From positions 744,001 to 808,000 of the forward strand of contig JANJGN010000131.1 of NCBI GenBank assembly GCA_026770705.1: 64,000 nucleotides of DNA, read 5' to 3'. Every line of letters starts with the position of its first letter. Position 1 is the stretch's first letter. A program made the translations under genes and the position numbers. This DNA is from Isurus oxyrinchus (taxonomy: Eukaryota). Below, piece after piece: positions 5,271-63,916 of the stretch. The notes below the pieces were generated by a model that did no database searches, was not told the DNA's origin, and saw only the letters and a program-made list of their open reading frames with translations.

Positions 5271-5367
5271 ATGTTCTTTGAAATTCCAACTGAACTTCGG
5301 ATTGTCTGGGTGATTTATGATTTGCAAAGGATTTACTATCCGCTCCTCGCTGCTGTTGGCATTTCTG
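5271..5367 (+). CDS. GPR139-like: GPR139/GPR142-like orphan GPCR gene 1, exon 1 (joins 10629..11530; 332 aa)
   Basis: ATG at 5271 gives MFFEIPTELRIVWVIYDLQRIYYPLLAAVGIS, then G|GTGAGT donor at 5368 (phase 1). The IYYP..AAxG TM1 motif is shared with the paralogs. Confidence 0.85.
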
Positions 5368-6059
5368 GTGAGTGATTATTTTAGAAACTTATTTTATAAA
5401 ACATCTTTCACCATGTTTGTTGTCCTTGCCCTTAACGTAAGTTAATTAATTTTATTCTCTGTAATTCTTGTGTCCTGTGACATGTAATGCCCTGTGCTTC
5501 TGTGAAGTAGCATTTCAGCAGTTGCTGATTCACTGTTCACAGTTCATTGGACCGTTTGTATATCTCAAGACTTGCTTCAAATGATTTTTTTCTTCAGAAT
5601 TTGGCTGGTATAATATTTTATGCAATAAATATTAGTGATGAATTATAGCTATTGAACAGCTGCAGTCTGCTGTTTAAACTGAACCCCAATATCTGAGCAG
5701 AATATGTTGCGCAGGTATTGGTTTTGCAGTGCGATGCAGATAGTAATTTGCACTGATCTGCGGAAATTAGGGCAGACAGGACCGAGGGAAGATCTCACAT
5801 AATAATTCAGCTCCAGGCAAATTCCGTTCCACCATCTCCCGCTTTGCCTAACAATAACCAAATTTAGATATTTAGGAGAGAATTTAAAATGTAATAATTG
5901 TTCAACAATATTTGCTCCCCTCACCAACAATTGGCTCCGTTCCCATTTCTGTCCACAGACCTAATTCCCTTCCCTTGTCTCTGCATGACGTTATTTAGAG
6001 CTGCAAATCATTATCCCCCTCTCAAAGTTTTTTTTTCAAAATGTGTCCTTGGGAAATGG

Positions 6060-6410
6060 ATGCTTGTGACAAACTTCCATTTATTACCCATCCGGAAGTG
6101 AGCTGAGAAGTTGGTGCTGAGTCTTCTTGCTGAGCTGAAGTATTCCCTCTGCTGACTGTGCTCCTACCTGCTGTTAGGGAATTCCGGAACGCTGATGAAG
6201 GGAGATGTTACCGTTCCAAGTCAGGATGGTGCGTTAGAAAAGGTCAATCTCACGGCATTGCACACCTTCTGCATTTTGCTGTGCTGGTACGTGCTGTCGA
6301 AGTAGCCCCGGTGTGTTGTTGTAGTTGATTCTGTAGACATTCTTCCTTCATCCACAGAGGTGGAGGTGGAGAAATAGCAAGTTTAATGATGGACGGACAC
6401 TGATGGAAAA
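6060..6410 (-). mobile_element. Decayed CR1-like LINE 3' fragment
   Basis: Degenerate match to the same 3' sequence seen at 8110-8500 (gctgttagggaattcc...ttccaagtcaggatgg). Confidence 0.5.
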
Positions 6411-8109
6411 TCTATTCCATTATTGAAGGGGATTCTGCTTATTGGGTGTTGCTCTGATAACCATACTGATGAGTAGTGAGCATTCCATTATGTTTCAGAT
6501 GTGAGATTTCCAGGCGTTTGATTGGGTTGGTGGGAGGCATGGTGTAGGGTGTGGGTGGAGGGGTGGCTGCTGGTGGGGACTGGTTCACCGTACTCCCACC
6601 AAACTGCTGAACACCGAACTTCCTCATCATGTTCCTCAGTTGCTGATATAGTTAATAGTTCCATCTGCTTAGCCACTGTTCTTTGCTGCTCCATTCTGTA
6701 GTCATTACCCCTGCCCTTGTAAATAAGCAACCCCTGTTGCCTCAGTCTTTGTAAGCAAACACTCCATCTCTAACCTCTCTTTCCTCTACAAATTCCTTGT
6801 CCCTGCTGCTACCCCCCACGTTTCTGCCCCTTCTTCCAGGGACACCATGCTTAAATCTTTCTAACCATTTTTCTACCTTATTACAACTCTTACACCGTCC
6901 TTAGCAAAGGCACAAATTATATCTTATGTGACTCTGCTAATGTCGAGCTGCCTCTCTTCCCTTTTGTCGACATGTCTGCAGCCTTTGGCATGGGTGACCA
7001 CAATGAAGTATTAAGAGTTTCATGTTCTGAATTTCCTCCTAAATCCTTTGTCCTCGCCACAAACTTATCATCCTTTAAGATAATTCTTAAAATGTGTTCT
7101 TTATTGTTATTCACCCTAAGCCAGCCTTTTTTGACCTGATCTCCATTTCGCTCTTGTGTAATTTCCCTCTATCTGCAGCTAGTGTCTGGAGTCCATTGCC
7201 GTGAAATTAATACTGACTATATCATTAACCGGAACTCCTGATGCCAACAGTGGTGAATATTGCAATGTCTGCCGCTCTGCATATCAGGACCGATCTGAAA
7301 TCTTGATCCAGGAGCATGCATGGTAATTTCCCATGAACTTTAAACTTCAGATGGGCAGATTTGTATTGCCCAGGCCCCTCTAACAATGACTCCAATACTG
7401 ACTTTAGTGTTGGACTGTTGTGCCTGTTGTGTGACAGATGCTTGGCATAGTATTTTCCCGCTATTAATTTCTAGCATGTGTCAGTGAATAACTTTCAAGC
7501 AAAGCCCATGCACGCCCAACCCCCACCTACAGAACTCCCACATTCATCCCACACACAACAACCCACAACACCCCCAACTACTGACCCCAGAATATCTAAT
7601 CTGACTCGATTGCCTTCCCCTCGATCCACTTGCACAGCTCTCACTAGCCATCGCCCGTCCATTCAACCCCCAACCGACTGCAAAGCACATTAACTACTCA
7701 CCCATCCCCATCCCAACTGCTGACCACCCGCCATCTACGCACCTCGTACACAGCTCATTTCCCCCACCCCGCTATGGAGGCAAGAAAAACAAGCTGCAAG
7801 GGTGGAAAAAGATGCGGCTTTAATTACATTTACAATCAGCACTGATTATCCGAGTATCGCCACCAAATAGGAGGCCAGGACCATTAATTTTATGAATTAT
7901 CTGACATATTAATTTAAACATGCATCAAAGCCCTGTGTTAATATTGCACCAGAATCTTCAGTTTCCCTGAGATAATAACACAGACGAGTTTCATTCTATC
8001 CTCATCCAGCGTTTAAACAGTCGAGAAACTGGTAAAAATTGTAAATTTTCATAATTTGGCTGCTCGGGTACACAATCTAGAGAAAGCGAACATGCAATAT
8101 GTGTTATTA

Positions 8110-9330
8110 TTATCCATTCATGGGAAATAGGCTTCGTTGGCTGGGCCAGAATTTATTACCCATCACTAGTTGCCCTTGTGTAGGTGGTGCTGAGCTGCCT
8201 TCTTGAACTGCTACAGTCTTCGGGGTGTAGGCGCACCCAGAGTGCTGTTCTGAAGGGAATTCCAGGATTTTGGCCCAGCGACAGAGAAGGAACGGCGATA
8301 TATTTCCAGGTCAAAATGGTGAGTGACTTGAAGGGGAACTTCCGTTTGGTGGTGTTCACATCTGTCTGCTCCCCTTCTCCTTCTAGATGGTAGTGGTCGG
8401 GGTTTGAACGTGCAGCTGAAAGAGCCTTGATGAGTTCCTGCAGTGCATCTTGTAGATGGCACCCACTGGTGCTACTATGCAACAGTGGTGGAGTGTGTAA
8501 ATATTTTTGGATGTGCTACCAATCCAGCGAGATGCATTGCCCTGAATGGTGTCAAGCTTCTTGAGCGTTCTGGGAGCTGCGCCCATCCAAGCAAGCGAGG
8601 AGCATTCCACTACACTCCTGACTTGTGCCTTGCAGATGGTGGACAGGCTTTGGCGGTGAGGAGGTGAGTTGCACGTCGCACTATTCCTTGCCTCTAATCT
8701 GCTCTTGTAGCCATAGTATTTATATGGCTTGTTCAGTTCCGTTTCTGGTCAATAGTAAACCCCAGGATTTGATAGTGGGGGATTCAGTGATGTTAATGCC
8801 ATTGAATGACAAAGGGCGATGGTTGGGTTCTCCCTTGTTGGAGATGGTCATTGCCTGACACTTGAGCGGTGCACAAGATACTTGCCACATGTCAGCGCAA
8901 GCCTGCTAATTGTCCAGCTCTTGCTGCATTTGAGCATGGGCTACTTCAGTACCTGAGGAGTCGTTAATGGCGCTGAACATTGTGAAATCAGTAGCGAACA
9001 TCCCACTTCTGACTATGTGATGGAAGGAAGGTCATTGATGAAGCAGCTGAAGATGGTTGGGCCGAGGACAGTACCCTGAAGGAATGCTGCAGTGAAGTCC
9101 TAGCGCTGAGATGATCGACCCCCAACAAACACAACCATCATCCTTTCTGCTAGGTATGGTTCGAAGCAGCAGAGATTTCCCCCCTGATTCCCATTGACTC
9201 CAGGTTTGCTAGGGGCCCTTGATGCCACACTCTGCCAAATGTTGCCTTGATGTCAAGGGCAGCCGCTCTCACCTCCCCCCGGGAGTTCAGCTCCTTTTTC
9301 CATGTTTGAAACAAAGCTGTAATGAGGTTA
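8110..9330 (-). mobile_element. CR1-like LINE fragment (RT C-terminus and 3' tail) in intron of gene 1
   Basis: Minus-strand peptides ELNSRGEVRAAALDIKATFGRVWHQG and MECSSLAWMGAAPRTLKKLDTIQ are typical of CR1/L2 ORF2. Confidence 0.85.
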
Positions 9331-9429
9331 GGATACAGCAATATAGCAAGTGAATAGGATAATAAATGGCAGTCTTCCCTGTATTCGAGTAAGGAACTTT
9401 TGATAGAATTATGCATGTGATTGGTGAGA

Positions 9430-10628: not shown

Positions 10629-11530
10629 TGAACATACTGACTATTGTGACACTGTCTCGGGGAAGGTGCGGTCTCTCAAAATGTGTTTCCCTTTACCTGG
10701 TGTCCATGGCAACCGCGGATCTACTGGTCGTTATCCTTGATCTCATATTCAGGCAAATTGCTATTCTTTACTGGGCTCAGTTTCAGTTCATGTGGAGGTT
10801 TAAAGTGTGTAATATCCATGCAGTCCTGCTTTATGCAGCCACAGATTGTTCTGTCTGGTTCACAGTCTCTTTCACCTTTGATAGATTTCTGGCTATTTGT
10901 TCCCAGAAGTTGAAAACAAAATATTGCACCCAGCATACGGCGGCTGTGGTTCTCGGAACAGTCAGTCTGCTATTCTGTGTGAAGGATTCATTCTGGTACT
11001 TTATGTATGTAGGTCATTATTCGCTTTCCAATGCTCCTTGGTTTTGCACATTAGTGACGGATGCTGAATTCTCATCAATGTGGGCAGCAATCGAATGTCT
11101 TCATTATATTTTAACACCATTTGTGCCATTTGTTTTGATTTTGATGTTGAACGCTTTAACTGTCAGATATATTTTAGTGTCGAGCAGAGCCCGCAGGAGA
11201 CTCCGGGCTCACTGCAGTGGGGAGAGACCCAGGGACCCACAGATGGAGAAACGCAGGAAATCCATCATTTTACTGTTTGCTATATCGGGGAATTTTATCC
11301 TGTTGTGGTTAGTTTTTATGATAAATTCTGTTTGTAATAGGCTATATGTGTTAGATGCTATTCCTGTATACCTTCCTAGGTTTGTGCAGGAACTGGGATT
11401 TATATTTCAGCTCCTGAGTTGTTGCACTAACACGGCCATTTATGCAGTGACCCAGACTCAATTCAGAAATGAGCTGAAGAATGTGGTGAAATATCCCTTT
11501 TCTGTAATTTTTAAATGTATTAAACAGTGA
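10629..11530 (+). CDS. GPR139-like: GPR139/GPR142-like orphan GPCR gene 1, exon 2
   Basis: Pyrimidine tract and ccttacAG| at 10628. Uninterrupted 7TM ORF with NILTIV (TM1), MATADLL (TM2), C3.25, FTFDRF (TM3), PWFC (ECL2), RRKSIILLF (TM6), NTAIY (TM7), FRNEL (helix 8), stop TGA at 11528-11530. Confidence 0.93.
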
Positions 11531-18860: not shown

Positions 18861-18879
18861 TCCAAATGTTGCTGCTTAA

Positions 18880-20030: not shown

Positions 20031-20039
20031 GGGAACTTG

Positions 20040-37750: not shown

Positions 37751-37774
37751 TTTTAAGGAACGCATGAAGGTTGA

Positions 37775-41251: not shown

Positions 41252-41282
<31 letters not shown>

Positions 41283-45377: not shown

Positions 45378-45466
45378 CAGCTGCACTAAAATGTTTTTTT
45401 TCAGTTGGTGTAATTAATGTAAAAGGCCTTCTCATTGTCTCCCTAGAGGCCGACATCATGTATAAA
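45378..45466 (+). promoter_or_regulatory. Proximal promoter of gene 3 (E-box, TAAT site, O/E-like site, TATA)
   Basis: CAGCTG (45378), TAATTA (45411), TCATTG-TCTCCCTAGAGG (45432-45449), 11 nt, TATAAA (45461). Confidence 0.65.
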
Positions 45467-45517
45467 TGTAACAGTCTTTCGGTGTAGCACAGAGCACCCT
45501 CGGAGCTTATGAGAGAA

Positions 45518-45587
45518 ATGCATGGGATACCACAAGGTCTGGTGTTCGCCATTTACTATCCCGTTCTTGCAGCTATCGGTATTCCAG
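45518..45587 (+). CDS. GPR139-like: GPR139/GPR142-like orphan GPCR gene 3, exon 1 (joined protein 326 aa; alternative in-frame ATG at 45509)
   Basis: MHGIPQGLVFAIYYPVLAAIGIP, then G|GTAAAG donor at 45588. 70 nt, phase 1. Confidence 0.9.
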
Positions 45588-46852: not shown

Positions 46853-47763
46853 CTAATCTGGCAGTGATTGTGATACTGATTCGAGGAAGATGCGGTCTCT
46901 CCAAATGTATCACTTACTACTTGATGTCCATGGCCATAACGGATCTCCTTGTCGGGATCACAGTTGTGATATTAAACCGGATTATAGGTATTTATTTCCC
47001 GTTCAGTCTCCTGGCCATCACACCGGTCTTCAGCCTCAGACTTGTGCTAATTTATGGTGTCATCGATTCTTCTGTCTGGGTAACAGTGGCTTTCACCTTT
47101 GACCGATTTGTAGCCATTTGCTGCCAGAAGCTGAAAATTAAATATTGCACTGAGAAAATGGCGGCTGCGGTGATAGGAACTGTCTCTGTACTTAACTGCG
47201 TTAAAAGCATTCCCTTGTATTTTATGTGTGAGCCTGCCTTTATAATTGACAATATACCCTGGCAATGCAACTCAAAATCAATATTTTATACGTCACCTGC
47301 ATGGGTCGCTTATGAAAGCATAATCGCCGTTTTAACCCTTTGCCTCTCCTTCGTTCTTATATTACTGCTCAATGCTCTGACCATCAGACACATTGTAGCG
47401 GCCAGTCGAGCCCGCAGGAGACTCCGGATCCAGAGCAATGGAGAGAATCAAAGTGACCCAGAGATACAGAAGAGAAGGAAATCCATGGTTTTGCTCTTCT
47501 GTATCTCGGGCAGTTTCATCCTGTTACATTTGTTAAGACTTATAAACTTCCTCTATGTCCGAATTGCGAATCTTAGCTATGTGGACTCTACCAATTTCAA
47601 TGAATCAAATTTTCTTATGGAGGAAAGCGCACGTATGCTTCAGCTCCTGAGTTCTTGCATCAATCCGTTTATTTATGCAGGGACCCAGAGTAAATTCAGA
47701 GAAGAGTTAAAGAATGGTGTGAAATTCCCACTGAACCTGCTTGTTAAATTATTTAAAAGATGA
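46853..47763 (+). CDS. GPR139-like: GPR139/GPR142-like orphan GPCR gene 3, exon 2
   Basis: ctgtcacAG| at 46852. Open 7TM frame ANLAVIVILIRGRCGLSKC...FTFDRF...NPFIYAGTQSKFREELK, stop TGA at 47761-47763, AATAAA at 47768. Confidence 0.93.
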
Positions 47764-49714
47764 TAACAATAAAATTCAACATGAGTCATAATGAGTGTTC
47801 CATCCATTGCTGCTTTTGTTTATCTCACACAAAGTTTTGTCTCCCGGAAGCAACGTCATTTTCTTTGAGTCCCTTTTCCTCCGTGTGAATTTAACAATGT
47901 ATAAAGAACGTTGCCTGCTCCCAGTTAGTTTTTAGTTGTCTTCCTCGTGCTAGCAGGGGCCTGGTACATCCCTACCAGCCCCCAGGGCCTTGGAAATCCA
48001 TGTGGGAGACAGAGAGTCCGGCTTAGATCTGATATTGGATACCAAAATTTAACAATTTAAGGGAGGAACCTCAATGTTATTGATTTGTGTAGTTTATACC
48101 TTATAGGTAAAAGGCGTTCTGAAACGGTAACAAATGCTGCTCCCATGCATTGTTCTCAACTCACTAGTCACCGCTTCACACTCGCTCACCCTTGTCATTA
48201 AACATAGGAATAAGGGGCAGGAAAAAATGAACAATAGTAATTCGCCTTCTACACTTTCAATCGGACAATTACGATGACATTTCCAGTGTTATCAAACAGC
48301 ATAAATCGAGTCTAACTACAGTGTCTTATTTTCAACGGGCATCAATCGTGAACAACAGAATTATTAAAAATAACTCATCAAATGTAATGGCAAATTCAGA
48401 ATTTAATGGCCCCTCTCGGCGGCGAGATTTTTTGGTTCTGCCAAAGCCAATGAGCTTTTGAATGACTCACCACACTTTACAGCACTGCCGCTCCCCACTG
48501 ACCATGCACAAACACATTTCTTGCCATCCTGATAGCCACAAAATCTCACGCCAGAGAAGTTATTGGCTACTCATTGCAACAGATCATTATCCCAATCTCG
48601 GGTGAGTACTGCACATGCGCTTGGGGTATGGCAGTTCCCCTGCTCCCCAAATGCAAAATACGGCGCAGGTCTCAATATTTGTCACTGTTGCCAGCGGAAG
48701 ATCGTGAGTAAGGAAGTAATTATTTGTTATACCTCGAAAGGTCTTTCAATATCGAGGTGGAAACTGATGCATTAGCCTTCTCTTTATATGCCCTTTGTCC
48801 AGATTATTAAATAACCCCAGATGTGATTAACATCATTAGTAAGAACATAATTGAAATTCTGCTGCTACTTGAAATTTCACTCATCTGTCAGCAATTGAAA
48901 TGCACGACTGAGTCACTCGCCAACTACATATCATTTGAAAGGTTTTTCCTACGTCTACCTCTTAAACATAACGGACTGTGAGAAGAAGAAACAACTGTTA
49001 ACATCTTCCCTAATCCATGCAGCATGTGAACGACTTCTTCTCAGTGGGAATATATCAATTAATTTTCAGGCAGGCTGAGGAAGCGCGTCCCGTCCTACAG
49101 TGTCCTCATTTGCAATGTTTCGCAGTATACCGCATCCTTGTGCTACTGAGGTTGGATGATTTGTTGAAACTTCGTCCAGTCATTGAAAACGTGCAAGACC
49201 TCTCCCCACTGTGGATGGTGCGATGCGTTTATTTATTCATATTGTGCTAACTAGTTAAAACGTTGTCCACATCCATTGCATTGGAGCACTCTCTGTCCAG
49301 TGTGCATCACATTCTTTTTGCTGTCACACTAACTATTGAAATATAGTCATACTTACTATACTGGCGACCATTTTTCCAATCTGCTTGGTGCTGTTCTATG
49401 CCTCCTTGTTCCCTTCTCGCTGCTTTGCAGAAATTGCTGACTATAGCTGGTTTCTGGTTTCAGTTCTGCATTTACCAGTGCAATTTTGGATCCTATCCCG
49501 AAGTTGTTGACCCATAGCAAAAGGAGAAGGATATTCTGGTCCGGGAATCTTCCCTGTCCTTCAATTAGTGCATTGCTAATATGCAGAATGTCTCCATTTG
49601 GACACCTTAGTTTAAAGCAGTTGGTACCAAATCCTATCAATCTCAGTTTTGATATTTTCAATTGAACCCTAGTCTCTATATCTCGTTGGTAGACAATTGC
49701 CTTGATGTATGTTG

Positions 49715-50200
49715 GAATAGTGGTCAGGTTCATGGACTAGTAAACCTGAAGGCAAGGTTAGTGATTCAGGGACGAAAATTTACATCCCACCACGTCAACT
49801 GATGAACATAAATTCAGTTCACGAAAGTAAGCTGAAAATTAAAAAAAGAGCAATTATGAATGATGACCATGAAACTACAGAATTCTCATGAATTAGCACA
49901 ATCCGTTTCATTCATTTACTTTCATGAAGGAATTCAGTTGTCTTTCCCAAGTTTGGCCTCTATGTGATGCTACGCCCAGGGAGATGCAGTGGAGTGACAA
50001 CTTCCCCCTTAACTGGCCTAGCAAGCAGGAGAAAATGTTTGAAAATAGAACCGATGGAACACCCGGCATCGAGCTAAGCACTAGAAACAACAAAAAGACA
50101 GTCAGCTCTGTCGATCCTGTAAAGTCTTCTTCACACAAATGTGGATGCATGAGATCTGCCCCAGAGAGCAGTCAGGCAACAGGCTGACATAATCATATTT
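49715..50200 (+). mobile_element. SINE/LINE-related repeat (same head and body as the 22487 copy)
   Basis: ggactagtaaacc...cccaccacg...tgaccatgaaact...ctggcctagcaagc followed by acccggcatcgagctaagcac. Confidence 0.55.
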
Positions 50201-51479
50201 TGAACCGTACCGTTCAGCCAATATTCCAGGTTTCTATCACCATTCAGAGTTAGGTTCGGCCATACCGCGAAAAAAAAAATCTTAAAGTGTTGGGCGTTTT
50301 TGTCCACAACTAGAAAGTGACCTGCACCAAACTGGCCCAGTGACAATTAAATAATGATTAAGTTCAAATACCTCTTTGATGTTTATTTGGAACAATTAGA
50401 TCTCCTGACATTAAATAAACTTGTTATCTTTAAAAGAGACGAACCTTTCCACTCAAAATGAATGTCCATATTGATTGGTTAGTTTCTCTGTCACTATCAA
50501 ACAACCTACCATTTCCGTTTGCATATTTGCTGTTAGTCTTGGAACCGATGCACTTATGTTGCAGGACACCCATCACAAAACATGTGTCACACTTTGTTAC
50601 AAATACATAAAAAAACTTTTAAAAACGAGAGTTCTGGCGATGGAACAAGAAGCTGAAGCTTAAAATAAAAAGTAATTATCCTCTTGGTTGGATTTGTGCA
50701 TTTTGAGAAATTGCTATTAAAGTGGAGGTCTGGTTAGCAGTTACATGTAACAATTATGTTTCACCTCTGAGACGACACGTAAACAACAATGCCCGATATC
50801 TAGCTTAGTAAACTTAAAGATCGACTTCCATTTCAAAGTATTTTCTTAATTACATGTTCATTTGAACTTTGTGAAATTAAGAAGACTTCATGATTTAAAT
50901 TAGTGTGTTTTCTATGATCGGCCAGTGTCTATAAAACAGGGATTGGAAATTATATGTAGAAAAGCAAACAGAGGTTAATAAATCAATGAAATAGAATTGC
51001 TCTTTTTTAAGCCACACCTTGGTCCGTATCTCATCTAGGTTTAATGATGTGCTTGTATCCCTGATTACTGTAATTTTTACACTTAAGTTATTTGAACAAA
51101 GCGTTGGTTGTAAAAAGTGATACTGTAATTAAGCCATTAGAGCCAGTAATCACAAGCTGAAAAAGATGAAAGTAATTCAAAGGCAACTATGTAACATGGA
51201 AATAAATCTGAAAATCTCATAAAGAAACAAAAAGAAAAAACGCTGGAAGTTATCAATCGCATCACCAGCTCCTTGACAAAAACATACTCACCGAACTGGG
51301 TACAACACAAAGGGGCCTGTGACTGTGCAGAGTCTATTTTAAAATAATTATCTATAAATAACATTTAAAGCAGCGGTAATATGATGCTTTTCTAGTAAAC
51401 TTCTAAATAATCCCTTGCGGAGCTCTGACAAATGTTCCCTGCAGAGAGCGCATTGTTCAATTTATGGGTGAATCAACAA

Positions 51480-51730
51480 TATTTTTAGGGGACAGTGAAG
51501 ATTGCATTCAGGGGACATTAATGATTGAACTTAGGAGAAGATGATCATTGTAGTTAGGGGACATTCAAAGATTGTATTTAGCAGCCAGTGATCATTATGG
51601 TTATGGTACAGTCGTCATTGTTTTAGGGGACAGTGAAAATTGTATTAGGGGACAGAGATCATTCCATTTACAGGGCAGAGAGCATTGTATTTAGGGGCAG
51701 AGCAGACTATATTCAGGGAACCATTGTCAT
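51480..51730. repeat. ~22-bp minisatellite
   Basis: Repeated ttaggggacagtgaagattgta-like units. Confidence 0.8.
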
Positions 51731-51739
51731 TCGCACCGA

Positions 51740-52860
51740 ACTTCCGAATTCGGTACGTGGGGGTGGGAGGGGTTGTGCATGGTAAGTGGCCCAGAAGATG
51801 CACCCGGGGCCCCCACAGGAATTTCTCATGTAAACATTACACAGATATTGTGCAGGAACTTCAAACTTCCGATGGGAAATTATCCTGGATGCCTTGGAAT
51901 CATCTGGACATCAAATTTAAATTGCAGAACATACGTAGCTCCACCACTCTGAGCAGAATAGGTATCCAGGAAAAGTTAGGGGATTTGAAATAATTTCCTA
52001 CTTCCCAATTCCCCACTTGACCCTAAATATTCCCCTCCACCGTTCCTCACTCGGTTGCCCTGATTATCCTCCTGACAGCCCGACTACCTTCCTACCTCGG
52101 ACTACAACCCCACCCTCATGAGTAACCCGACTAAAAAAACACCACCCTATTATTCCTCCCTCCACAAATCGTCTCACCCACGCCTCGACTGACACCCGCA
52201 GACACAAAATACCCCTGGACTAATTCTACACCCTCCGACCCATCCTACCCACTCCACCTATCCTAATCCCAACGTATCCTATTCCCCGGAACGATGCTAC
52301 CACCCGATCCTCCCTATCCCATTCCACCTACCCTAAACCCGGGACCATCCTATGCCCCTGACCCATACTGCCCCACTCAACTCATCCAACCAGCCAGCCA
52401 CAGATTACATCACTGAATCATCCTACCACGCTCCACCATTCTACCCCTGATCCAACCATCCAGACTGGCACACCCAACCCCACTCGCCCCGTCCTACCTC
52501 CAACCCATCATGCACACTCCAAGTATCCTACCCTGAATCATCCAATTCTCCTAGCCCAACCTACCCCCCTCAACCCATCCTGCCTCCAAGGACTATCCTA
52601 CAGTCTGGACTATTCTAACCCACTGGACCTATACTACCCACTCTACCTCCCCGACCTAACAGACAGCTTGAACCAGCCAACCCGCCCGACCATTTCACGC
52701 CCGAACAATCCTGCCCCACTTGAACTAGACTACAAGCCCGACCATTCCTCAACTGCCAACGAAACCTACTCCTGACACAAGTTACACTACGTCAACTGTT
52801 CACAACACCTTACACATTCTGTCAGTTCAAAGCATCCTACCTCACGCCGGTTTTTCGAAT
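51740..52860 (+). repeat. Interspersed repeat with long C-rich low-complexity tail
   Basis: Core (aacttcaaacttccg...gcagaataggtatccaggaaaag) recurs at ~57120 (+) and ~56770 (-), followed by C-rich degenerate repeats. Confidence 0.55.
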
Positions 52861-52889
52861 CCTGGTCTACTCTTCCCCTGACACATCCA

Positions 52890-53545
52890 TTGACTAGAAA
52901 TTGAACTGGGCTAGCCATCTAAACACTGTGGCTACAAGAACAGGTAAGAGGCTAGGTATCCTGCGTCGATTAACTCAGCTCCTGATTCCCCAAAGCCTGC
53001 CCACCAGGTGGCCCACTTGCTCTTGGTGCAAGTCAAGAGTGTAATTAAATACTTCCCACTTGTCTGGATGAGTGCTGCTCCAACAACGCTCACGAAGCTT
53101 GACACCATGCAGGACAAAGCAACCCGCGGGATTGACCCCCCCATCCACAAATATTCACTCCCTCCACCACCGGTGCACAGTGGCAGCACTATTTGCCATC
53201 TACAAGATGCACTGCAGGAATTCACCTTAGACAGCACCTTCCAAACTTACGGCCACTACCTTCTTGAATGACAAGGGCAGCAGATATATGGGAACTCCAA
53301 CAACTGGAATTTCCCCTCCAAGTCACTCATCATACTGACTTGGAAATATGTCGTTGTCCCTTATATGTCCCTGGGTCAATATCCTGGAACTCCCTCCCTA
53401 ACAGAACATAGGTGTACCTACACTACATGGACCACAGCAGTTCAAGAAAGAAGCTTATTAACACCATGTTCTCAAGGGCAATTATGGGTGGGCATTAAAT
53501 GCTGACTGAACCTGGGACACCCACATCCATGAATGAATAAAAAAA
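52890..53545 (+). mobile_element. CR1-like LINE 3' fragment (second family)
   Basis: Peptide QVKSVIKYFPLVWMSAAPTTLTKLDTMQDKATR. The tail ends in atgaatgaataaaaaaa and matches rc of 8110-8700. Confidence 0.85.
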
Positions 53546-55304
53546 CTGTTACAGAAGCATCACTTTACCCTTTGACTTTTTAACTGATATTGTGCCTAAT
53601 TGTGACGAAGTATTAATATCCGACTCTAACATTGACGGAGTAAATGATGCTTTGGTCAAATACGTTGAATGACCACATGTGTTGGGCTCCATATCCTCTT
53701 GCAAGTAATTGACCAATTTTGAAGGATTTTCTGCGGTGTGCTCGCACAGATTGCCTGAATAAACAAACTTTCCTGATGGAAAGACACGAAGAGTTGGGCT
53801 CGTGATTCTTATACAGTTTTTGACATATGCAGTGTTTACTCGTGCAATTGAATTCATACCAAAGAGCCAAAAGTCGTTTTTTTCTGATCAAGATGGTTTT
53901 CATTACTCTGAATGGATATGCACAATGTAAGTCTATTTACTGTACCGTGAACTGAGGCTGTAACAGAAAAGGAGAAAAGCTTTGCTACAGCTGTACAAAT
54001 CCCTGGTTAGATTACATGCTGGATTCCTTGTATAGTTCTGGGAACAGAACATTAGAAATGATAAACATTGGTCTAGAAGCAGGCCAGCACTGATCTACCA
54101 GAATGCTTGGAAGGTTTTAATATTTAGACTCAGGCGCCATGCCAGTTATTACAGCAGGACAACTGTTGGTTTCCGCCTGGTGCCTCAGCTTGAAATGAAT
54201 TTCAGGATGTTAGAGTCAATGTGCAGCAAATATCCACATTAGTAATACCATGCAAATTCAAACAACTATACTCAGTATCTGTTCCATGATTCAATGTTTA
54301 AAATCAAAGTTGTAATATTTGTATTCTCATTTTGAAATTAGGCACTCTCCACTTTGCAACACAAAACGAGTTGTAAACCTGGCGGAGTTGCACCATTTGT
54401 TGCAGTGAAGAAACAACTCCGGACTGGAGTGCTGTTTTCAAAGGTCAGTTGTGATCGGTTGATCAGGAGTAATGCGTGTATCTGTGTAAACAGCAAGCAG
54501 AAACATCTGTCCCATTGCAACCCATATTCAGCCTTACACCACCATCTTTAGTCAGTTAACTTTTTGTGCATTGTGCATTAGCACAGCCCATCTCACCCCT
54601 TTCCTTCACTTCTAATCTCCGCCTCTATAGCTGTTCTCGACCAGTGGACACGTGAATTTTCCAAAACCTGATGCGAAATTTTAACTCTCAGCCCTCGTTT
54701 TATTCTTTCAATCAAGACGTAATTCATGCTAGTTTTGACAATTCGCATGATGTCAAGTGTTGTGACTAGCCAATCTGGTAACTCGTGTTTTCTTTTAGTT
54801 TTAGTAATAATAATTGATGTGGGGAAGCATGGATTTGTGTCGTGGGTAAACAATAATTACAGTTCACTGGATAGTCCATGTCTGCATAAAGAGGCCAGAT
54901 CTGCCAGTGTGAAATCCTTAAAGAATAGGCAGCTTTTCATGGTGTGGACGTACTATCTGCAGTTGTCTTCATAAGGGGTTCAAGTAGTCATGCAGCTCCC
55001 AGATCAAAGAAACTACAAGTGCCAGAGAAGGCATTAGGGTTTGTGTATTAGACAGGCCCACGTTTTTGGACCACATCACCTTGTTTAGGCTGATTTCCTT
55101 TTTGAGTCATCGAGGCCCCAATGTCCAACAGGTTCTGCTCCCTCTCAAACCTGAGGGAAGACAAATTCTAGCGAAAGCTTGTAGAATTTCTGTTCAATAG
55201 TATGTCTATATCAGATCTGCATTGGTCCCAATCTCTCGGAATCGTTCTCATGTTTTTTGCCCGGTTCAGCATAAGAAGGCCGACAAGATTTTGTCTCGAT
55301 GGTG

Positions 55305-56245
55305 TTTATGTGCCATATATTTCCTGGCCTCTAGGAATTAGCCTATGGTTGTGCCAACGGCAATATCAGTGTTATATATCGGCTCTGCAACTGCTCTGCT
55401 TTGTAAGTGTTTAGCCGGACAGTGCGGGGGGGGTGGGGGGGGGGGGGGGGGTGGCGTTGTGGGGGGTGGGGGCACTCCGCGCCTAACCAGAGCTGTAGAG
55501 GCCTGGGAATATTTTATGTGATACGTAAAGAACGTATTCTTCCTCAAACATTGTGCTGCATTAACCTCTGAGGAAGAGTGCCTTTATTATTTAGAACGAC
55601 CCGACGCTGACTGTGACAGATCAGAGACGTCACTGAGTTGCTCTTCGCCATTCCATCATTCTGCTTCTGGTTTTTACCATAAAAGGGAAGGGGTAAACAT
55701 TTCTTTACACGGGTGGGGCGTTGTGTGGTGAATCGCGCTTTGACTGAAGGGCCTCGAGTTCAAACACTTTGCAGACAGGAATCGTGTGAAATACCAGTCT
55801 GGAAAGGAGGAAAACGTGAAATAGGGAAAATGCAGCCATGTCGATGAAGCGAGGAGAAATGAATTCAGCAAAGTTATACTTGGTGCAATTATCATTCAAG
55901 ATTTATTAACAATTTCAGGGCATGTTTTGTAGAAATTATTCATTTAAAGGTCACAAAAGTGAATTTATCATTTGAGCGTCACATTGAGACGACCCCATAT
56001 GCTCTGAGCTGCCAACTGTAAGAAGAAGTGTAACATAGGCCAGAAAGAGAAAACAGAAATTTAGCATAAAGGGAAGGGGATAACAGCGAAAGAAAAGACA
56101 TATTTACAAATGCAATTCAAGCTATAGTGAAATTATAAGCGACAGTTATTTTAAAATAATAATTATCTCGCGCATTTCAGACAGAAAGGTGGAAATACTT
56201 CCACGAATGTCTCAATTACAGATTCAGAATCATAAAATGAAGATA
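55305..56245 (-). pseudogene. Second copy of the Ig heavy-chain TM2/3'UTR region, truncated by a repeat insertion
   Basis: Colinear with 14680-15550 (gtgttatatatc; tgactgtgac; ttacacgg.tggggcg; agggaaaatgcagc..tgtcgatg; gaattcagcaaagt; cagaaagagaaaac; ttacagattc). Minus-strand AATAAA at 55902-55907, and rc YLHFMILNL* at the break. Confidence 0.7.
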
Positions 56246-56249
56246 GGCA

Positions 56250-57790
56250 CAGCGTGGAGAGAGGTTTAGTGTGCAAGACAGCAGGGTCAGGTAGTCGGGT
56301 GGCAAGTATAGGGGTGAGAGAATAGGGTAGTTCGAGGGATATCAGGCAGTTAGAGGTTGTTGACATTTAGTGGGGGAAGGGGGCTAGACAATTGGACGGG
56401 GGGGGGTGGTTAGCGGGTGGGGTTGAAGTGCGGAGTAGGCACAGTGCGGTGGGAGTGTGGGTAGCGTTTGGGTTATCCGGAGGGTTGTCTGGGGTAGGGG
56501 GAGATTCGGGTGTTCGGGACGGTAGTCGGGGGTTGGGTGCAATGGGAATGTGGGAGATTAGTTTGGGGATAGCGGTTGTCCCCGTCATCTCGGCAGCAGT
56601 TGAAGTTTCAATGTATTAGACAGGGTATGGGTAATTGGGTTTTGGATGGTAGTCGGGGACCTGGGGCACACTCGGGCTGTCTGGACAGTAATTGGGGTGT
56701 CCATTTCAGAGTTGCAGATCTGAATTCTGGTTACTCAGGAGCTGGAACTGGTATTAATCCTTCTCACGTTTCCTGGGTACCTATTCTGCTAAGTATGCCA
56801 GGACAATCCAACTCCTCCAAATCTAACTCAGGGTTCTGGAATGTTCCAGATGCAGTACTAATTGCCCAAAGGATGTGGAAAATCCGGGGGAAGTTGCCGG
56901 GCAGTCCTGAAGTGGGGAATTACATGGCATTCAACATCGCATCTCTCTGGTACCTTGGGGTCAGGCCATCTACTGGTCAGAAGATCTGGGAATATTGACA
57001 ATACATTCTGATCTCCATAGGGCCGCAGTCATGAGGCACCCCAAAGATGCTGTTTGAGAAGCACAACCTCCACCATCCGCCCCCGGGCAGGAAGCCCCCA
57101 TATGAGGGCTGCACGGGTATTGACCGGAAAATTCAAACTTCCGAAGAACATCAGGTACCATCCAAACCATCCGACATGTGGATTTTAATTGGAAACTTCA
57201 GATTGTTATGCCTGTCCCGGGAAAATAGTTTCCCAGGAGGAGTGAGAAGAACGAAAATCGTTTCTAACTCCTGGGTCACTATAGAAATGACAACCCCGAC
57301 CCCCCACTGGAAACCTCAAATATATCTCCCACCTCCCCGACTGCCGAACCTCCCCCGCCTATCCTCTCAACCCGCCCCCGACTAAGCCCCATTACCTTCC
57401 CCAACCCCTGACAATCCTCCCGCCCCCAGGCTGTCCTCCCAGCAATCAACGAACCACAAGCACCCAACTGCACCGTCACCCAGTGAGGACCCAATTGACC
57501 TCACGAATACCCCTGATAACCTGCCAAACACCCTCCCAACACATCGAATACTCGTCAAGCATGACATCGACAATTTCCCTCGATTCCCCAAACACCCTGC
57601 AGACCCCTGATTACCCCATAAGCATTCCAACCGCCTGAACAGCCCAGGGTATCACTCTAACACCTCGACAACCATCCCAACCACGCCTAATTCTCTCCTG
57701 GTATCCAAATGTAACAACCCTGGACACACCCGATGATTCCAACACCGCCCTCCCATCCTCTCCCCCAGCGGCCCATCACCTCCATCCCCA
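56250..57790. repeat. Head-to-head pair of the C-rich-tailed repeat
   Basis: G-rich tract (56250-56700), inverted core, direct core, then C-rich tract (57300-57790). Confidence 0.55.
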
Positions 57791-59779
57791 ATCCTGGAAA
57801 ATTGGATTCTGGATGTCTGATATCTAATAGCAGTAGTTTTCCTTATCCATGTTTGATTTGATGTTCTCTGATGTCATGAGACTTGATGGATTCCGCAGCA
57901 GATATTGAGAACTCCAAAGGCCCTCCTTCCAGAATATACACCACTGTACTGGCATCACCGAAGGCTCTAGCCTGTTGGTTTATGTTGCTTCCCAACTCGA
58001 TTTTTTTCCAATTATAGCATTCCAAATCATATTTTTTGCAGTAAATTCCATATCTCATGCGCTTGGCATTCCAGCTGTCTTTCCTGAATTATGTCAACTA
58101 GCCTGCACACAGTTTTCTCCATATCCATGTCTTGCACTATCGGCAAAGCTTAAATTTTTACCCTTTGTTCCCGTGTCCATATGTCTAACAGATATCACAA
58201 ATGACAATTGACTGAACACCAATACTTGTGGGACACTGTGTTAACTTGCTTCATGATGCAAAACCATCGGGACCCACGAATACCATCCCGTCTATTACTT
58301 CAGAGAAAAGTCCTGTCAAGTTTGTCTATTTTGCCTTATTACAAATCCATGTTAGCTGTCGGTTATTAACCGAAAATCTTCCAATTCACCATTAAAATTG
58401 CCCCGATTCTGCTCACTGGACGTTCACCTGGCGGCAATGTTAGGCTGACTGATTGTAATGCAACAATGATTTTCACACAGGATAGGAAATGTCTCTGTGG
58501 TGAATTTGCATGGGGGCTTCTAGATTGTCATGTGACATTCAATGTCAACATGCTTCATTAACATTCAACATCATAACGTGAGAAAAGTGCAACTTTTAAA
58601 GATATTGTAAGATATCATGGGGGTAATGTTTCCTGTTGAATAAGTTTTAAAAAAATCTAGTTTGTAAAGGAGAACATGAAAAAAATAACGACTGATCTTA
58701 TTGGGAATTACAATGGAGTAATTGATGCAACGGAAATAACGAGACAACCCGACTAATAAATTCGTCAAATTCTTTCTGTACCTGCCTTTCGAAAGACGAA
58801 TGTGCTCCTGAGCAGTGTCAGTGTCATCCAGCATCCGCCCAAAATGAAAACGAATGGAACGTCTCGCCAATCAGCCCAAATTGCCGAGTTGTAGGCCCCT
58901 ACTGCATTACAAAGCAACACTGCAGCACCAACATCCTGTTGTTCTCTGGAATCCATTAAGTGTCAACTAAACTCGCTTGCATTTCACGCTATGCACACCC
59001 AAAAATCCTGCCCACCAGATCATTGATAAATGGTTCTATTGAGTATTGTCAGTAGATAGAGTGAGATTCTTAATATTGGTTCATACAATGCAATGGCAAC
59101 TCCTGCCGCTGTCAAGGAGCATTAAAGAGTCTGGCTCCATTTGAACAGATTGCTTTTGCCAGAGCATCGTCTCTTCATAGCCGACACTGCATTTCAGCTG
59201 TAACGTTGCTGGTCCAGAGGCATCGTTGGCCCCGTGGACACATCATCAGATCTGCTGCCTCTCCTTACAGGCTGCAGAACAGTCATCTGGGAAATCCAGA
59301 AACCAACCACAAGGCCTCCAAAAACAAGCCTTAATAACACCAAATAGTTTGTGACAGGAGAACTCCTCCAAATTAAATTCCATGATATTAAGGTACCAAG
59401 CCCATTGTGAAATACTGGTGGAGTGTCAGTTTTGCAGAACTGGAGCTTCTGTTTGCCGAATGATGTATTAATGCGTTTTCTACTCCACATTCGGTATACT
59501 GCCATCACTTCAGTCGTCAGGATGTGTGACTTCAGTGTAACATCGATTCACCTTTTTCAGGCAAATACGGGGCATACTCCCACAGGCCTCTTTCACAAAT
59601 GGAATTCTGGGTCATGGTAGAGAGTGCCTCAGCAAACCACAGCTAAACATCGGTACCACTGCTGCAACTAATTTCGTGCCCCGAATATTGAAGCTATCAA
59701 CTGACATTATAGTTGATCACGTCTGGGCCTGTTGTCGAATAACTGTTAAAGATAAATTGGTAGGACCGGTTAACTACTG

Positions 59780-60070
59780 ATGGGAGGTGGTGGTGTAGCA
59801 GCATTATGACCAGGTTAACATTGCATAAGGCCCAACCTAATTCTCTGGGGACCGAAGTTCACATCCCACCGTGGAAGGTTGGGCAATTTGAATTCAATAC
59901 AAATCTTTAATTAAGCGTCTGATGATGATCATGAAACCATTGCTAATTGCTGTAAAAGCCCATTTGGTTTAATCATTTCCTGCAGGAAAGAGCATCTGCT
60001 GTCTGGCCTCTACGTGACTCTTAAATGCTCTCTGAACAAGAGCATTTAGCGATTGAATGAATAAAAAAAT
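59780..60070 (+). mobile_element. tRNA-headed SINE
   Basis: ggaggtggtggtgtagc...ctctggggacc...cccaccgtgg...catgaaaccattg...ctggcctctacgtgactc with an A-rich tail. Same family as 22487. Confidence 0.7.
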
Positions 60071-60780
60071 CCCTTCTACCTTTATCAACGTGGCTAACAG
60101 GACAGTAGGAAACGAAATCGGCTGAAGATTTATAAATGATAAATGAAGATAATGTCCTTATGCAGTTTTCTAACTTTTTAAAAAATGATTTTGTTGGTCA
60201 TTTTTGGGGCCCCTTTAGAGATGGGACTCTTCCCAATTGGCCAACGGAAAGTGCAGAAGATGAATTGATGGTATTTTGCCATCGCAATCCCCCAGTCTGC
60301 TGTTTGTATATTTAGGGGCTCAGGTGTTTGCTGTAAAGCAGTGCTTGGTCAGTGGAGAACAATTCCTGAGGATAGTATGTGCATCCATTTCGAAGCGTAT
60401 CCAACCATCAAGATCAGAATCATTACTGGGGCGGGACGCGGGGAGATTGTGGTTGCTTTATCAACAGTTCATCTTGGAATGTGGTAACAAATCAGATATA
60501 CGACACTTTGCCGTCCACATGAACGTAGAGATACTACGAGGACTACAAGGACACTGGATTCTGATGGGAATAAGACAGACCAGAGAAAATATGGGCAAGA
60601 GAACATTTAACTACCAGAGAACAGATACTGACACTTAATTGTGCTCGGATGTATTGCGCCTTTAACAGTCTTATTTTCAAACTGAGTGACTGTGAACTAG
60701 AATGGAGAACAATACATGGCATCGACAAGAAGGGGCAAGGATGGAATCTTGTGTACAGTTGAAGTTGGATTCTGCTGTCC

Positions 60781-61690
60781 TTATCGTCCAAATAATTTAA
60801 CAATTTCAAGTAGTGGATATTTCACCCCATTCTTTAACACCTCTCTGAATTTACTCTGGTCCCTGCATAAATAAACAGGTTTGCGCAGGAACTCAAAAAC
60901 TGAAGCATGTATGCTTTTTCCTCAAGAATGAATGTTGAAAGATTGATTTCAGAGCTTGAAAAGTATTTAACATTTCCAATTTGCACATAGAGGAAAGTTA
61001 TAAAAATTAACAAGTATAACAGGATGAAATTTCCCGATACACAGAAGAGTAAAATGATGGACTTTTTCCGCTTCTCCATCTCAGGGTCACGCTGATTGTC
61101 TCCATTTCTCCGGGTCTGGAGTCTCCTGCGAGCTCTGCTGGCTGCGAGAATGTGTCTAACTGTCAGGACATTGAGCAGTAAAATCAGAATGAATGGGAGA
61201 CAAGGGGTTAAAATGTGATCAATGCAGTCATAGGCGATCCATGCAAGTGAGGTATAAAATATCACTTTTACATCGCAGAACCAGGGCACATTGTCAATTA
61301 TGTACAAAGATTCGTATATAAAATACTGGAAGGTGTTTTTGACACAGCTGATTGTGCAGATTGTCCCTATAACCCGTGCCGCCGTTTTTTTGGAACAACA
61401 TTTTACTTTCAGCTTCTGGCAACAAATGGCCACAAATCGATCAAAGGTGAAAGCTGTAGTTAACCAGGCAGAGCTGTCTATGGCTGAATATATTAAGGCT
61501 TCACGGAGACTGCATACTGGTGTGATTGACAGGAAACTGAGTGGGAAATAAATACCAGCAGTCCGGTTCAATATCACAGCGGTTATAATGAGCAGGAGAT
61601 CTGATACCGCCAGGGATTGTAAATAATGCGTTATACAGGTGGAGAGGCCGCATTTCACTCGAGAAAGGATCACAATCACCGCCAGGTTAG
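60781..61690 (-). CDS. GPR139-like: GPR139/GPR142-like orphan GPCR gene 4, exon 2 (1-bp frameshift after TM7; as sequenced stops at 60834)
   Basis: (CT)n-tttattgcAG| at 61691. Open through all 7 TMs. GGG ACC AG AGT lacks one C of ACC CAG at ~60858. The ancestral tail SKFREVLKNGVKYPLLEIVKLFGR* continues in the other frame to TAA at 60781. Confidence 0.85.
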
Positions 61691-62889
61691 CTGCAATAAA
61701 GAGAGAGAGAGAGAGAAGTTGGAAAGAGACTGAGTTTGTGTGTGTGTGAGTTTGGGAGAGAACGAATACAGGAAGGTTACTGCTCAAACTATAAACAAAT
61801 CAACAATTGTATAGGATTCTGCATGAATTTGTACATTTCAGATGTGTTCCCCAGTTGCGCAATTGCAATGGGCAAGTGATTCAGCTTTGTAAATTGAAAT
61901 CTTAATTCAATATAGGTCAGGTCAAAGTTATATGAATGTCAAATATTTTAATAAAAACTAATGGAGAACAAAAGACATCGTTAACATTGAGAAACCAACC
62001 TAGAATTTTTGTATAAGCAGGAAGAAAGTGTACGCTTCTGCAAGGCATTGCAGGAAATATGGTCTAAAGTAAGTAACAAAACAAGCAACAAAAAGTGTGG
62101 AAACTAACAAGGGCGCGGATTATATCTCACTGAAGATCAATATAGTTCCTTTCCTATATAATAATTGGCAATAATTATTGAAAATTATTCGTTGTTGTGA
62201 ACTTCGGGAATTAAACCTGCTTCCAAATATCGACATACAGCGAGGAGTAAAGGGGCAATAAATGATTTCTGATCTTCCAGACAGGGCGTTTGCCTGCATG
62301 TGAAGATACATCCTAGCTCCTCACATATAGTCAACTGGAAGATCGGTGTCGATCTGAACCTTTGGAAATGGCGGAAGCCAAAATCTCCTTCCGAGTGAGG
62401 TCCTCTTGCAATGCAGCACTGACTCCGTACTGCACTGCACTTTCGGGATCAACTATCAACGTTGTCCTGTAATAGATATTTCAAATCAAAGCATTGCGCC
62501 TGAGATGTGAAAGATGCAGCCAAGTAGACAGCCTCATTCAATATGGACAAACAGCGGAGACGGGAAAATGTGGGACATTGTCCGGTGATATCAGCAGAAG
62601 GAAATTCCGACGTCAACAGTGGTCAAGTCGAAGCGTCAGCAGCAGTTCAAGAACCAATTAGTGTTGGAGACTGAGAGCAGAAACACACCTCTGTGATCGT
62701 GGTGCTAATATAGAATATTCATCAAAAGTCTATTATTACATTGTTCATACATCTGTCAAAAACTGGGTACTCATGATGTCCTTCCATCAAATTCGTTGGG
62801 GGAATATTGAATGTTACATTGCCCTCTATCAATGAAACATTCGTGGGAATTTTTCGATCATTGTCAATGTGAACAACACAACAGATTTA

Positions 62890-63300
62890 CATTTGCACCG
62901 TGAAAACAGTGTGATAGCTCATCCACAGTTCGACTGTCAGTAACAGAAGATGATCCATTTCACAGTGTGTTTAAAGTGTGATAACATAACCACAGTTCGA
63001 CTGTCAGTAACAGAACACGAACATATTCATACTGTGATTAAAGTGTGATCACTCAACCACAGTTAGACTGTCAGTAACAGAAGGTGATCACATTCACACT
63101 GTGATTACAATGTGATAATTCACCTTCAGTAATGATACCGGAAACACAATGGAAAAACATTTAGACTGTAATGTCACTGTTAAAATACACCTGCAGTAAC
63201 AGAAGACAATTACACTTGCACCGTGATTACAATGTGATAATTCTCCTTCAGCAACAATGCCAGTAACAGAATGGAAATGCAATTGCACTGTGATAATAGT
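62890..63300. repeat. ~62-bp tandem repeat in intron of gene 4
   Basis: ccacagttcgactgtcagtaacagaa recurs at ~62923, 62990 and 63057, then decays. Confidence 0.8.
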
Positions 63301-63339
63301 GTGAAAATGCACCAGTACTAAATGGCGCAAAACACCATT

Positions 63340-63780
63340 GAAGATGGTAATATAATACCACTTACAACGAAAAATTACACCCTTATAAGGGGGATATTAT
63401 ACCGCTAACAGCGAGAAATTTCACCCTGAACAGGGTAATATTTTACCATTAACAGCGAGAAATTACACACTTTGCAGCGTGATATGATAGCACTTAAATT
63501 GTGAAATTTTGTTTTTAACAAGGTTATATTATGCCACTAACAGCGAAGAATTGCACCTTTAATAGCATATTATTAAGCCATTAGCGGCGAGGAATTTTAG
63601 GCAAAGGGAACAAATTATATTGTCAAAATTGAGACATTATGCCTATAAAGTGGGGAAAATGTTCTTTTAGAGGGGTAAAATATACTTGTTAAAAGAGGGA
63701 AATTGCTCCATTAATGGGGAGAATTGTACAGATAAAGGGCGAAATGGGAGAATGGGTATAACGTTATGGATATTAAATGC
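63340..63780. repeat. ~43-bp degenerate tandem repeat in intron of gene 4
   Basis: Repeated taatattttaccattaacagcgagaaattacacac-like units. Confidence 0.7.
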
Positions 63781-63846
63781 TTTTAAAAGGTAGAATTCCT
63801 GCAGATAACCGATTTCCGTATCAAAATAGTAATTACAATACTTTAC

Positions 63847-63916
63847 CTGGAACCCCGAGAGCTGCAAGGACTGGATAATAAATGGCAGACAGAAGGTCTT
63901 TTGGTGATCCGTGCAT
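63847..63916 (-). CDS. GPR139-like: GPR139/GPR142-like orphan GPCR gene 4, exon 1
   Basis: ATG at 63916 gives MHGSPKDLLSAIYYPVLAALGVP, then G|GTAAAG. 70 nt, phase 1. Confidence 0.9.

Follow-up and report, generated by a model that had tools for sequence, protein, structure and literature searches.

A large GPR139-like receptor family of cartilaginous fishes, seen through a gene cluster of Isurus oxyrinchus, is a candidate chemoreceptor repertoire

A stretch of 64 kb from Isurus oxyrinchus (contig JANJGN010000131.1, positions 744,001 to 808,000; referred to below as the window, with positions counted from its first base) carries a cluster of genes for G-protein coupled receptors (GPCRs) that resemble GPR139, and it raises the question of what these receptors are and what they might recognise. 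The initial annotation of this DNA had regarded them as a diversified ligand-recognition repertoire, possibly directed at amino acids or peptides. In the analysis described here the idea of a repertoire was supported by family size, gene turnover and divergence of paralogues at the pocket, while the link to amino-acid ligands was not. A probability of about 0.5 is given to the reading that sensory neurons, with olfactory ones the most likely, use the family as a set of tuned chemoreceptors. Published work is cited by PMC identifier.

To define the gene copies in the window, six-frame open reading frames (ORFs), tblastn searches and splice-site mapping were combined. Six two-exon copies of a class A GPCR gene were found in both orientations, three of them intact, one frameshifted and two decayed. 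These numbers agree with the earlier count, to which a seventh fragment has to be added (42362-42538, plus strand), a remnant of transmembrane helix (TM) 4 and extracellular loop (ECL) 2. Gene A (plus strand; exon 1 at 5271-5367, exon 2 at 10629-11530) encodes 332 amino acids, gene B (minus strand; 30090-30021 and 28629-27722) encodes 325 and gene D (plus strand; 45518-45587 and 46853-47763) encodes 326, all three being intact. In gene E (minus strand; 63916-63847 and 61690-60784) a run of C near 60858, just past TM7, is one base short; owing to this frameshift the product of 308 amino acids lacks helix 8, unless the shift is an assembly error, which it could be. It is not among the 12 listed of 60 rows of insertions and deletions obtained when contigs of a close relative were aligned to the window.

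Each of the four long frames begins with a splice acceptor and is preceded, at a distance of 1.3-5.3 kb, by a first exon whose phase-1 donor matches it. All four full genes (A, B, D and E) thus share a phase-1 GT-AG intron within TM1; exon 1 of A encodes the N-terminus and the first half of TM1, and its exon 2 the remainder of the seven-helix domain. The start of A agrees with the Heptranchias relatives P0282 and P0283. An out-of-frame ATG at 5264, seven bases before this start, opens a frame of 16 codons that overlaps exon 1. Pairwise protein identity is 74% between the recent paralogues B and D, 62-64% between E and either of them, and 46-49% between A, a member of what is called here the A subfamily, and the others. 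The conserved intracellular motifs quoted in the initial annotation were found again, with small variants in B and E.

Pseudogenes C1 (39381-39545) and C2 (41282-42204), both on the plus strand, represent a TM1-TM2 remnant that ends after TM2 and a nearly whole exon 2 with several stops and frameshifts, respectively. Their starts lie in a tandem duplication of about 1.8 kb on the same strand (37767-41452, made up of 37767-39533 and 39708-41452), the two halves of which are 78% identical. First exons of C1 and C2 were not found by tblastn, and there was only a weak motif match. Weak opposite-strand tblastn matches over B and D were rejected as antisense echoes of those exons. Between 45300 and 62000 every one of the 30 bins is covered by DNA contigs of the close relative (runs X2 and X6), so that the cluster is no assembly artefact. 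In run X2 the receptor-exon bins are about 15-40 times deeper than the single-copy flanks, a depth that is no copy number and that agrees with the presence of many paralogues.

The window receptors are class A (rhodopsin-like) GPCRs. Four of the 12 ORFs tested, namely the four long ones, matched Pfam 7tm_1 with 67.6-81.6 bits (cut-off, 30.5). The DRF motif is present in A, B, D and E, and the TM7 motif reads NPxxY in B and D, NTxxY in A and NLxxY in E. An AlphaFold model of exon 2 of D (mean predicted local distance difference test score, 88) consists of a helical bundle with a beta-hairpin in ECL2. Membership in the OR, TAAR, V1R or V2R families was rejected: at E ≤ 0.01 Pfam gave 7tm_1 alone, and no such names occurred among the 240 listed protein matches described below.

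Among solved structures, human GPR139 was the best match by sequence, with E values of 7e-7 for exon 2 of D and 3e-11 for the full-length protein P0005, for which the prolactin-releasing peptide receptor was the runner-up (1.4e-9). A profile of 141 sequences searched against the PDB ranked the same two receptors first (GPR139, 3e-23; prolactin-releasing peptide receptor, 3e-17) and gave 1e-16 for CCR1. In a Foldseek search with the model of D, GPR139 came fifth among peptide and chemoattractant receptors, without separation from them. Orthology to GPR139 was rejected, as the two single-sequence E values are weak when set against the identity of about 70% shared by the true orthologues of zebrafish and human (PMC7318219).

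The residues of the GPR139 agonist site (E108, F109, H187, W241, R244 and N271; PMC7318219) were then placed on the family by alignment to GPR139. Across 302 aligned rows none of the six was kept in 45, one in 86, two in 139 and three in 32, and more than three in none; 151 different six-residue combinations occupy these positions. As the agonist site is mostly not kept, the argument from L-Trp and L-Phe as ligands of GPR139 does not carry over. The similarity to GPR139 is weak as well, and the amino-acid link proposed in the initial annotation is not supported.

How far the family extends beyond the window was determined by protein searches. Exon 2 of D retrieved 2,048 protein clusters at E ≤ 1e-5, and exon 2 of A retrieved 1,789 at E ≤ 1e-20. 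The best 120 matches of each search, all annotated proteins of other species, were inspected (240 rows). All of them were chondrichthyan, and most carried the name 'probable G-protein coupled receptor 139', the label that pipelines had been suspected of applying. Copy number, to which the initial annotation had pointed as a check, was gauged from these proteins of other species: among the matches listed, Heterodontus francisci accounts for at least 128 distinct protein clusters at 90% identity (82 D-like and 46 A-like). Together with the damaged copies (three of the six in the window), the cluster counts bear out a large birth-and-death family across cartilaginous fishes. Of the 82 listed D-like matches of Heterodontus, 60 lie on a single 59.5-Mb contig, which also carries P0284, a relative of A; the combination of A and D in the window thus probably goes back to an old cluster.

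The very short N-termini noted initially are typical of the window, not of the family as a whole. Of the 119 A-like relatives (P0280-P0398), 48 have WNVT-type units at the N-terminus, each about 14 residues long and bearing a glycosylation sequon; in some cases several such units follow one another in tandem. None of the 70 short D-like N-termini carries such a sequon.

With respect to descent, all ten deeper-branching representatives that were looked up came from sharks, skates, a stingray or Callorhinchus, and further out the matches were to proteins of salamander, coelacanth, teleosts and amphioxus. When the salamander protein served as query, 25 matches were obtained: 20 amphibian clusters that span all three orders, each genus being listed once, together with a single cluster from sturgeon and four proteins from chondrichthyans. 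No amniote or teleost match was obtained in this search, which is word-based and does not prove absence. In an IQ-TREE phylogeny of 35 rows, rooted with invertebrate and amphioxus outgroups and built without true GPR139 or GPR142, the amphibian/sturgeon gene and the chondrichthyan family formed one clade (support 100/99), apart from the Latimeria/teleost group. A TM3-ICL2 motif (ICL, intracellular loop) is common to the chondrichthyan family and the amphibian/sturgeon gene, and the ICL3 motif is also present in amphibians. The joint clade and the shared motifs indicate that the receptor lineage is as old as the jawed-vertebrate ancestor and that the expansion alone is chondrichthyan. The earlier designation as a family of cartilaginous fishes thus applies to the expansion but not to the lineage, which includes the sister gene of amphibians and sturgeon.

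This sister gene (P0230, P0407-P0426) is 66-74% identical across amphibians and 46% identical in the sturgeon, and it too is labelled 'probable GPR139'. It is present in Xenopus (XP_031757816.1) and axolotl and appears unstudied. Its occurrence in amphibians and sturgeon, with none found in amniotes, would fit an aquatic function.

Next to copy number, the distribution of variation along the receptors bears on their role. Mean column entropy across the 302 rows amounted to 1.07 bits in the intracellular helix halves, 1.87 at outer non-pocket positions, 2.16 in the pocket and 2.41 in ECL2. Weighted entropy and site rates likewise distinguished a conserved inner from a variable outer half (p about 1e-7 or lower), and the conserved intracellular face and variable outer parts described previously were thereby confirmed. 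GPCR families mostly vary more in their outer than in their inner halves. Because this contrast is so common, two sharper pocket tests were made. One used a generic set of 35 pocket positions, not one derived from a structure. Compared with 50 neighbouring outer positions, they showed more changes of chemical class (p = 0.001) and a slightly higher entropy (p = 0.046), and the six positions of the GPR139 site were faster by substitution rate (p = 0.02).

The other test set orthologues against paralogues and comprised one orthologue group (A) and three paralogue pairs (B, D and E). Between A and its four likely orthologues, identity in the pocket was 77-86% (27-30 of 35 positions) as compared to 76-84% in the intracellular part (Fisher p 0.44-1). 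In pairwise comparisons of B, D and E, pocket identity dropped to 51-60% (18-21 of 35), against 73-87% intracellularly (Fisher p 0.001-0.02). The predicted pocket is thus conserved in orthologues and divergent in paralogues, which is the signature of specificity-determining positions, and the divergence of paralogues at the ligand pocket that had been postulated for this cluster is borne out.

Some features of the helices deserve separate mention. The TM3 cysteine is kept in 294 of the 302 rows; B and D lack this residue (Cys3.25) and possess a new cysteine that opens ECL2. Among the Heterodontus proteins P0012, P0062 and P0064, two that belong to a separate clade share the cysteine swap of B and D, and the third holds both cysteines. 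The absence of the TM3 cysteine is associated with the presence of the one in ECL2 (Fisher p 1e-6, not corrected for relatedness), which suggests two separate origins of an alternative disulphide within ECL2. Asp3.37 (84%), a basic residue at position 4.56 in TM4 (83%) and Gln7.42 (74%) are conserved in the family, and the first two possibly form a buried TM3-TM4 salt bridge. A mere 20 of the 302 rows retain Pro6.50, an unusual state for class A receptors, and Pro5.50 is replaced by Ser in D.

Inspection of the DNA upstream of the first exons revealed a common arrangement of motifs. The promoter region of B (30202-30142, minus strand) contains two homeodomain-type sites, an exact O/E core (30168-30160) and a TATA box 21 bp further on. 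That of D (45411-45466, plus strand) contains a homeodomain-type site at 45411, an exact O/E core at 45440-45448 and a TATA box at 45461. That of E (63994-63968, minus strand) consists of an exact O/E core (63994-63986) and a TATA box, the window ending 6 bp upstream. The exact TCCCYNGRG core of the O/E (Ebf) site is hence located at ATG-78 in three of the four full genes, each time with the TATA box 21 bp further on, and homeodomain-type TAAT sites are located 5' of it in B and D. Upstream of A (5119-5161, plus strand), homeodomain-type TAAT sites and an O/E-like site with two mismatches occupy places homologous to those in B, D and E.

Taken alone, the O/E core occurs at chance level in the window (seven seen, 5.6 expected; 12 and 10.5, respectively, for the looser TCCCNNGRG). 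A TATA box stands behind three of the 12 TCCCNNGRG sites, precisely those of B, D and E (null mean 0.05 in 60 simulations), and motif columns are identical across the three genes in 8 of 8 cases as compared to 32 of 70 other non-coding columns. In Heterodontus P0074 an N-terminal extension reads the promoter in frame, and its residues are compatible with an O/E core and a TATA box at that spacing (E about 1e-9 to 1e-10). Independent promoters were also sought in metagenome contigs, where a DNA pattern of exon 1 gave 0 stretches. Six loci from a protein-profile scan were discarded, as they belong to unrelated GPCRs and the similarity is confined to a short C-terminal part, which comprises TM7 or, in two cases, begins at TM6.

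The core matches the consensus of the O/E matrix in Table 1 of PMC3247239, a study of 314 start sites of mouse odorant receptor genes in which O/E and homeodomain sites were enriched within the preceding 200 bp. O/E-like sites were present in all 39 V1R promoters studied (PMC3247230), and Lhx2 and Ebf act jointly at odorant receptor enhancers (PMC5608512). The predicted layout of homeodomain site, O/E site and TATA box is that enriched in odorant and V1R receptor promoters, and these motifs add support for a predicted expression in sensory neurons.

The receptors thus combine a conserved G-protein face and many pockets with a shared promoter of homeodomain, O/E and TATA elements. In the mechanism that we propose, the window would be a slice of a tandem array belonging to an ancient GPR139/142-related lineage, which would have stayed single-copy in amphibians and sturgeon and been multiplied by duplication and decay in cartilaginous fishes. 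Each gene would be active in only part of the Ebf/Lhx2-type sensory neurons, of which olfactory neurons are the likeliest candidates, and each receptor would recognise a different water-borne ligand, with a peptide or a hydrophobic/aromatic metabolite being more likely than free Trp or Phe. All receptors would signal via one common pathway, probably from Gq/Go via phospholipase C to TRPC2; GPR139 couples mainly to Gq/11 (PMC7318219), and trpc2 is among the top catshark transcripts of brain and olfactory epithelium (PMC11979771). Such a system would work like an odorant or vomeronasal repertoire, drawn from a different branch of class A GPCRs. A further-reaching proposal is made tentatively, at somewhat less than even odds: a fifth major vertebrate olfactory receptor family that stems from the GPR139/142 lineage, uses the Ebf/homeodomain code of odorant receptors, is larger than the known chemoreceptor families of sharks combined and has left a single gene in amphibians and sturgeon.

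Several observations weigh against an olfactory repertoire. The substitution rate of the pocket is no faster than that of outer non-pocket positions (p = 0.37), and the pocket of the A subfamily is rather constant, with the top three combinations making up 91 of the 302 rows. The ratio of nonsynonymous to synonymous substitutions (dN/dS), calculated pairwise by region from four coding sequences, was 0.26-0.38 overall, 0.17-0.23 inside and 0.39-0.63 in the pocket, and no region exceeded 1. As to the promoters, the O/E motif was noticed post hoc and its position is counted from the ATG rather than from a transcription start. The O/E-like site of A is degenerate, and the read-through model of Stegostoma P0125 fits the TATA part only, not the O/E part. 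The promoters of B, D and E share one ancestor and therefore count as a single origin. Moreover, Ebf factors have roles in B cells and in neurons of other kinds.

The material on expression weighs in the same direction. Among 15 sequencing runs listed, seven contain part of the stretch, none of these with a tissue label, and four runs were aligned to it. Run X10 contained only two contigs of 118 nt with about 86% identity to D and gave no sign of transcription. In run X1, labelled as a coral metatranscriptome, short contigs align to 45300-62000 with an identity of about 97%, in exons as well as between genes. As intergenic DNA is covered too, they are no evidence of transcription and are most simply explained by DNA carry-over. 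In the available sections of PMC11979771 no GPCR is listed among the top 50 brain-and-olfactory-specific transcripts of catshark, a list which sparsely expressed receptors would be expected to miss. Finally, the olfactory family demonstrated in sharks is that of the V2Rs, which already provides them with receptors of the amino-acid type (PMC10116579).

Instead of odorants, the receptors might detect microbial or damage peptides on leukocytes or epithelial sentinels, in the manner of formyl-peptide and chemoattractant receptors, and the O/E site would then serve EBF1 in the B lineage. Immune GPCRs also form birth-and-death clusters with variable pockets, and the fold search placed GPR15, CXCR2, C3aR and CCR5 about level with GPR139, with scores that do not discriminate. 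In the catshark, moreover, several OR and V2R genes have their main site of expression outside the nose, in spleen, testis or rectal gland (PMC11979771). Such a role in immune or barrier surveillance is nevertheless unlikely, in view of the homeodomain sites which, beside O/E core and TATA box, match the odorant-receptor layout, of an ancestry of the GPR139/neuropeptide rather than the chemokine type (profile E of 3e-23 for GPR139 and 1e-16 for CCR1), and of dN/dS values below 1, which give no indication of arms-race selection at the resolution tested. We consider it equally doubtful that the repertoire is chemosensory but not olfactory, that is, an MRGPR-like set used in trigeminal or spinal sensory neurons, solitary chemosensory cells, taste buds, gill or gut. 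Activity of Ebf genes extends to many kinds of sensory neuron, and GPR142 is a nutrient sensor of gut and pancreas; against this stands a promoter layout that is best documented for receptors of the nose and the vomeronasal organ. Niches for such a set would have been left open in cartilaginous fishes, from which MAS1 and related receptors are absent according to the available sections of PMC8455134, and in the catshark, for which those of PMC6368271 report that no TAS2R was found.

A tuned repertoire of any kind would be dispensed with if an endocrine or neuropeptide-type receptor had been multiplied by genome instability into mostly redundant duplicates under relaxed purifying selection. That half of the window copies are damaged, that dN/dS never rises above 1, that outer halves are more variable in most GPCR families, and that D has lost Pro5.50 and all but 20 of the 302 rows Pro6.50 would be in line with this. 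Yet the subfamilies and the pocket of A are conserved across distant shark orders, intracellular dN/dS is as low as 0.17-0.23, the same compensatory cysteine swap appears to have arisen twice, and the expansion covers sharks, batoids and a chimaera, all of which makes redundancy improbable. A sensory repertoire, most likely olfactory, is the reading that we prefer.

The remainder of the window includes decayed interspersed repeats between the genes (8107-8753, 25532-25996, 52889-53543 and 55326-56243), among them a pair of related inverted copies. The segment 25532-25996 shows a weak reverse-transcriptase match below the Pfam cut-off, and contig depth is very high at 52541-53654 and 55326-55882. 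The intron of gene E harbours minisatellite arrays at 62908-63291 (periods 67/122) and 63349-63472 (period 44). An Rfam scan of the window gave no match.

A literature search revealed no description of the expansion; most subscription papers are outside its coverage, and a prior description is possible. The nearest published mentions are GPR210A/B in bony fishes (PMC6504862) and a table entry termed 'Orphan 139-like' (PMC5207463). The expansion is not discussed in the available sections of PMC12294341 and PMC12208981, and the supplements of PMC13188829 and PMC8455134, as far as available, hold no entry for 'receptor 139' or 'gpr139'. Public annotations already contain the genes, albeit with a misleading name. 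Whatever its role, a family that lies behind an automatic label and numbers at least 128 distinct members in a single shark changes the count of chemoreceptors or GPCRs. A paucity of GPCRs has been described for cartilaginous fishes (PMC8455134), and 65 chemosensory receptor genes for the catshark (PMC6368271). These fishes are credited with few chemosensory genes despite their large olfactory organs; if the family is olfactory, a set of smell receptors would have arisen independently once more in vertebrates, and this mismatch could find its explanation. The ancestral ligand and expression site could be approached in the laboratory by way of the single-copy gene of Xenopus and axolotl.

Compared with known systems, the shark family resembles GPR139 and GPR142 in the absence of Trp4.50, in an aromatic residue at 3.33 and often in His5.42 and Trp6.48; GPR139 is also encoded by two exons (PMC7318219). 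It differs from them in being multi-copy, in that Glu3.32, Arg6.51 and Asn7.39 are mostly replaced and Pro6.50 is mostly lost, and in its TM3-ECL2 cysteine pair and long basic ICL3 motif. GPR210A/B (PMC6504862) and the 'Orphan 139-like' or 'NMOGPR' entries (table in PMC5207463) are likewise unstudied non-mammalian receptors near GPR139/142, known from fishes and coelacanth, but these are small gene sets of bony vertebrates, and the word 'shark' is absent from PMC6504862. In the tree, the position immediately outside the shark clade is taken by Latimeria and teleost proteins broadly of this kind, and to equate them with those entries would be a guess. The FMRFamide, sex-peptide and MIP receptors of invertebrates form a group that has been linked to GPR139 (PMC12208981), and Atlas neighbours of the family include FMRFamide-receptor-like and Srw-type clusters; for the shark clade, any orthology to that group or ligand shared with it would be tentative. 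Unlike the vertebrate olfactory receptor families OR, TAAR, V1R/ORA and V2R/OlfC and the vomeronasal formyl-peptide receptors, the shark family has a coding region split by an intron, matches Pfam 7tm_1 only and has a putative olfactory role. With them it shares clustered birth-and-death evolution, short N-termini, variable pockets and promoters composed of O/E, homeodomain and TATA elements.

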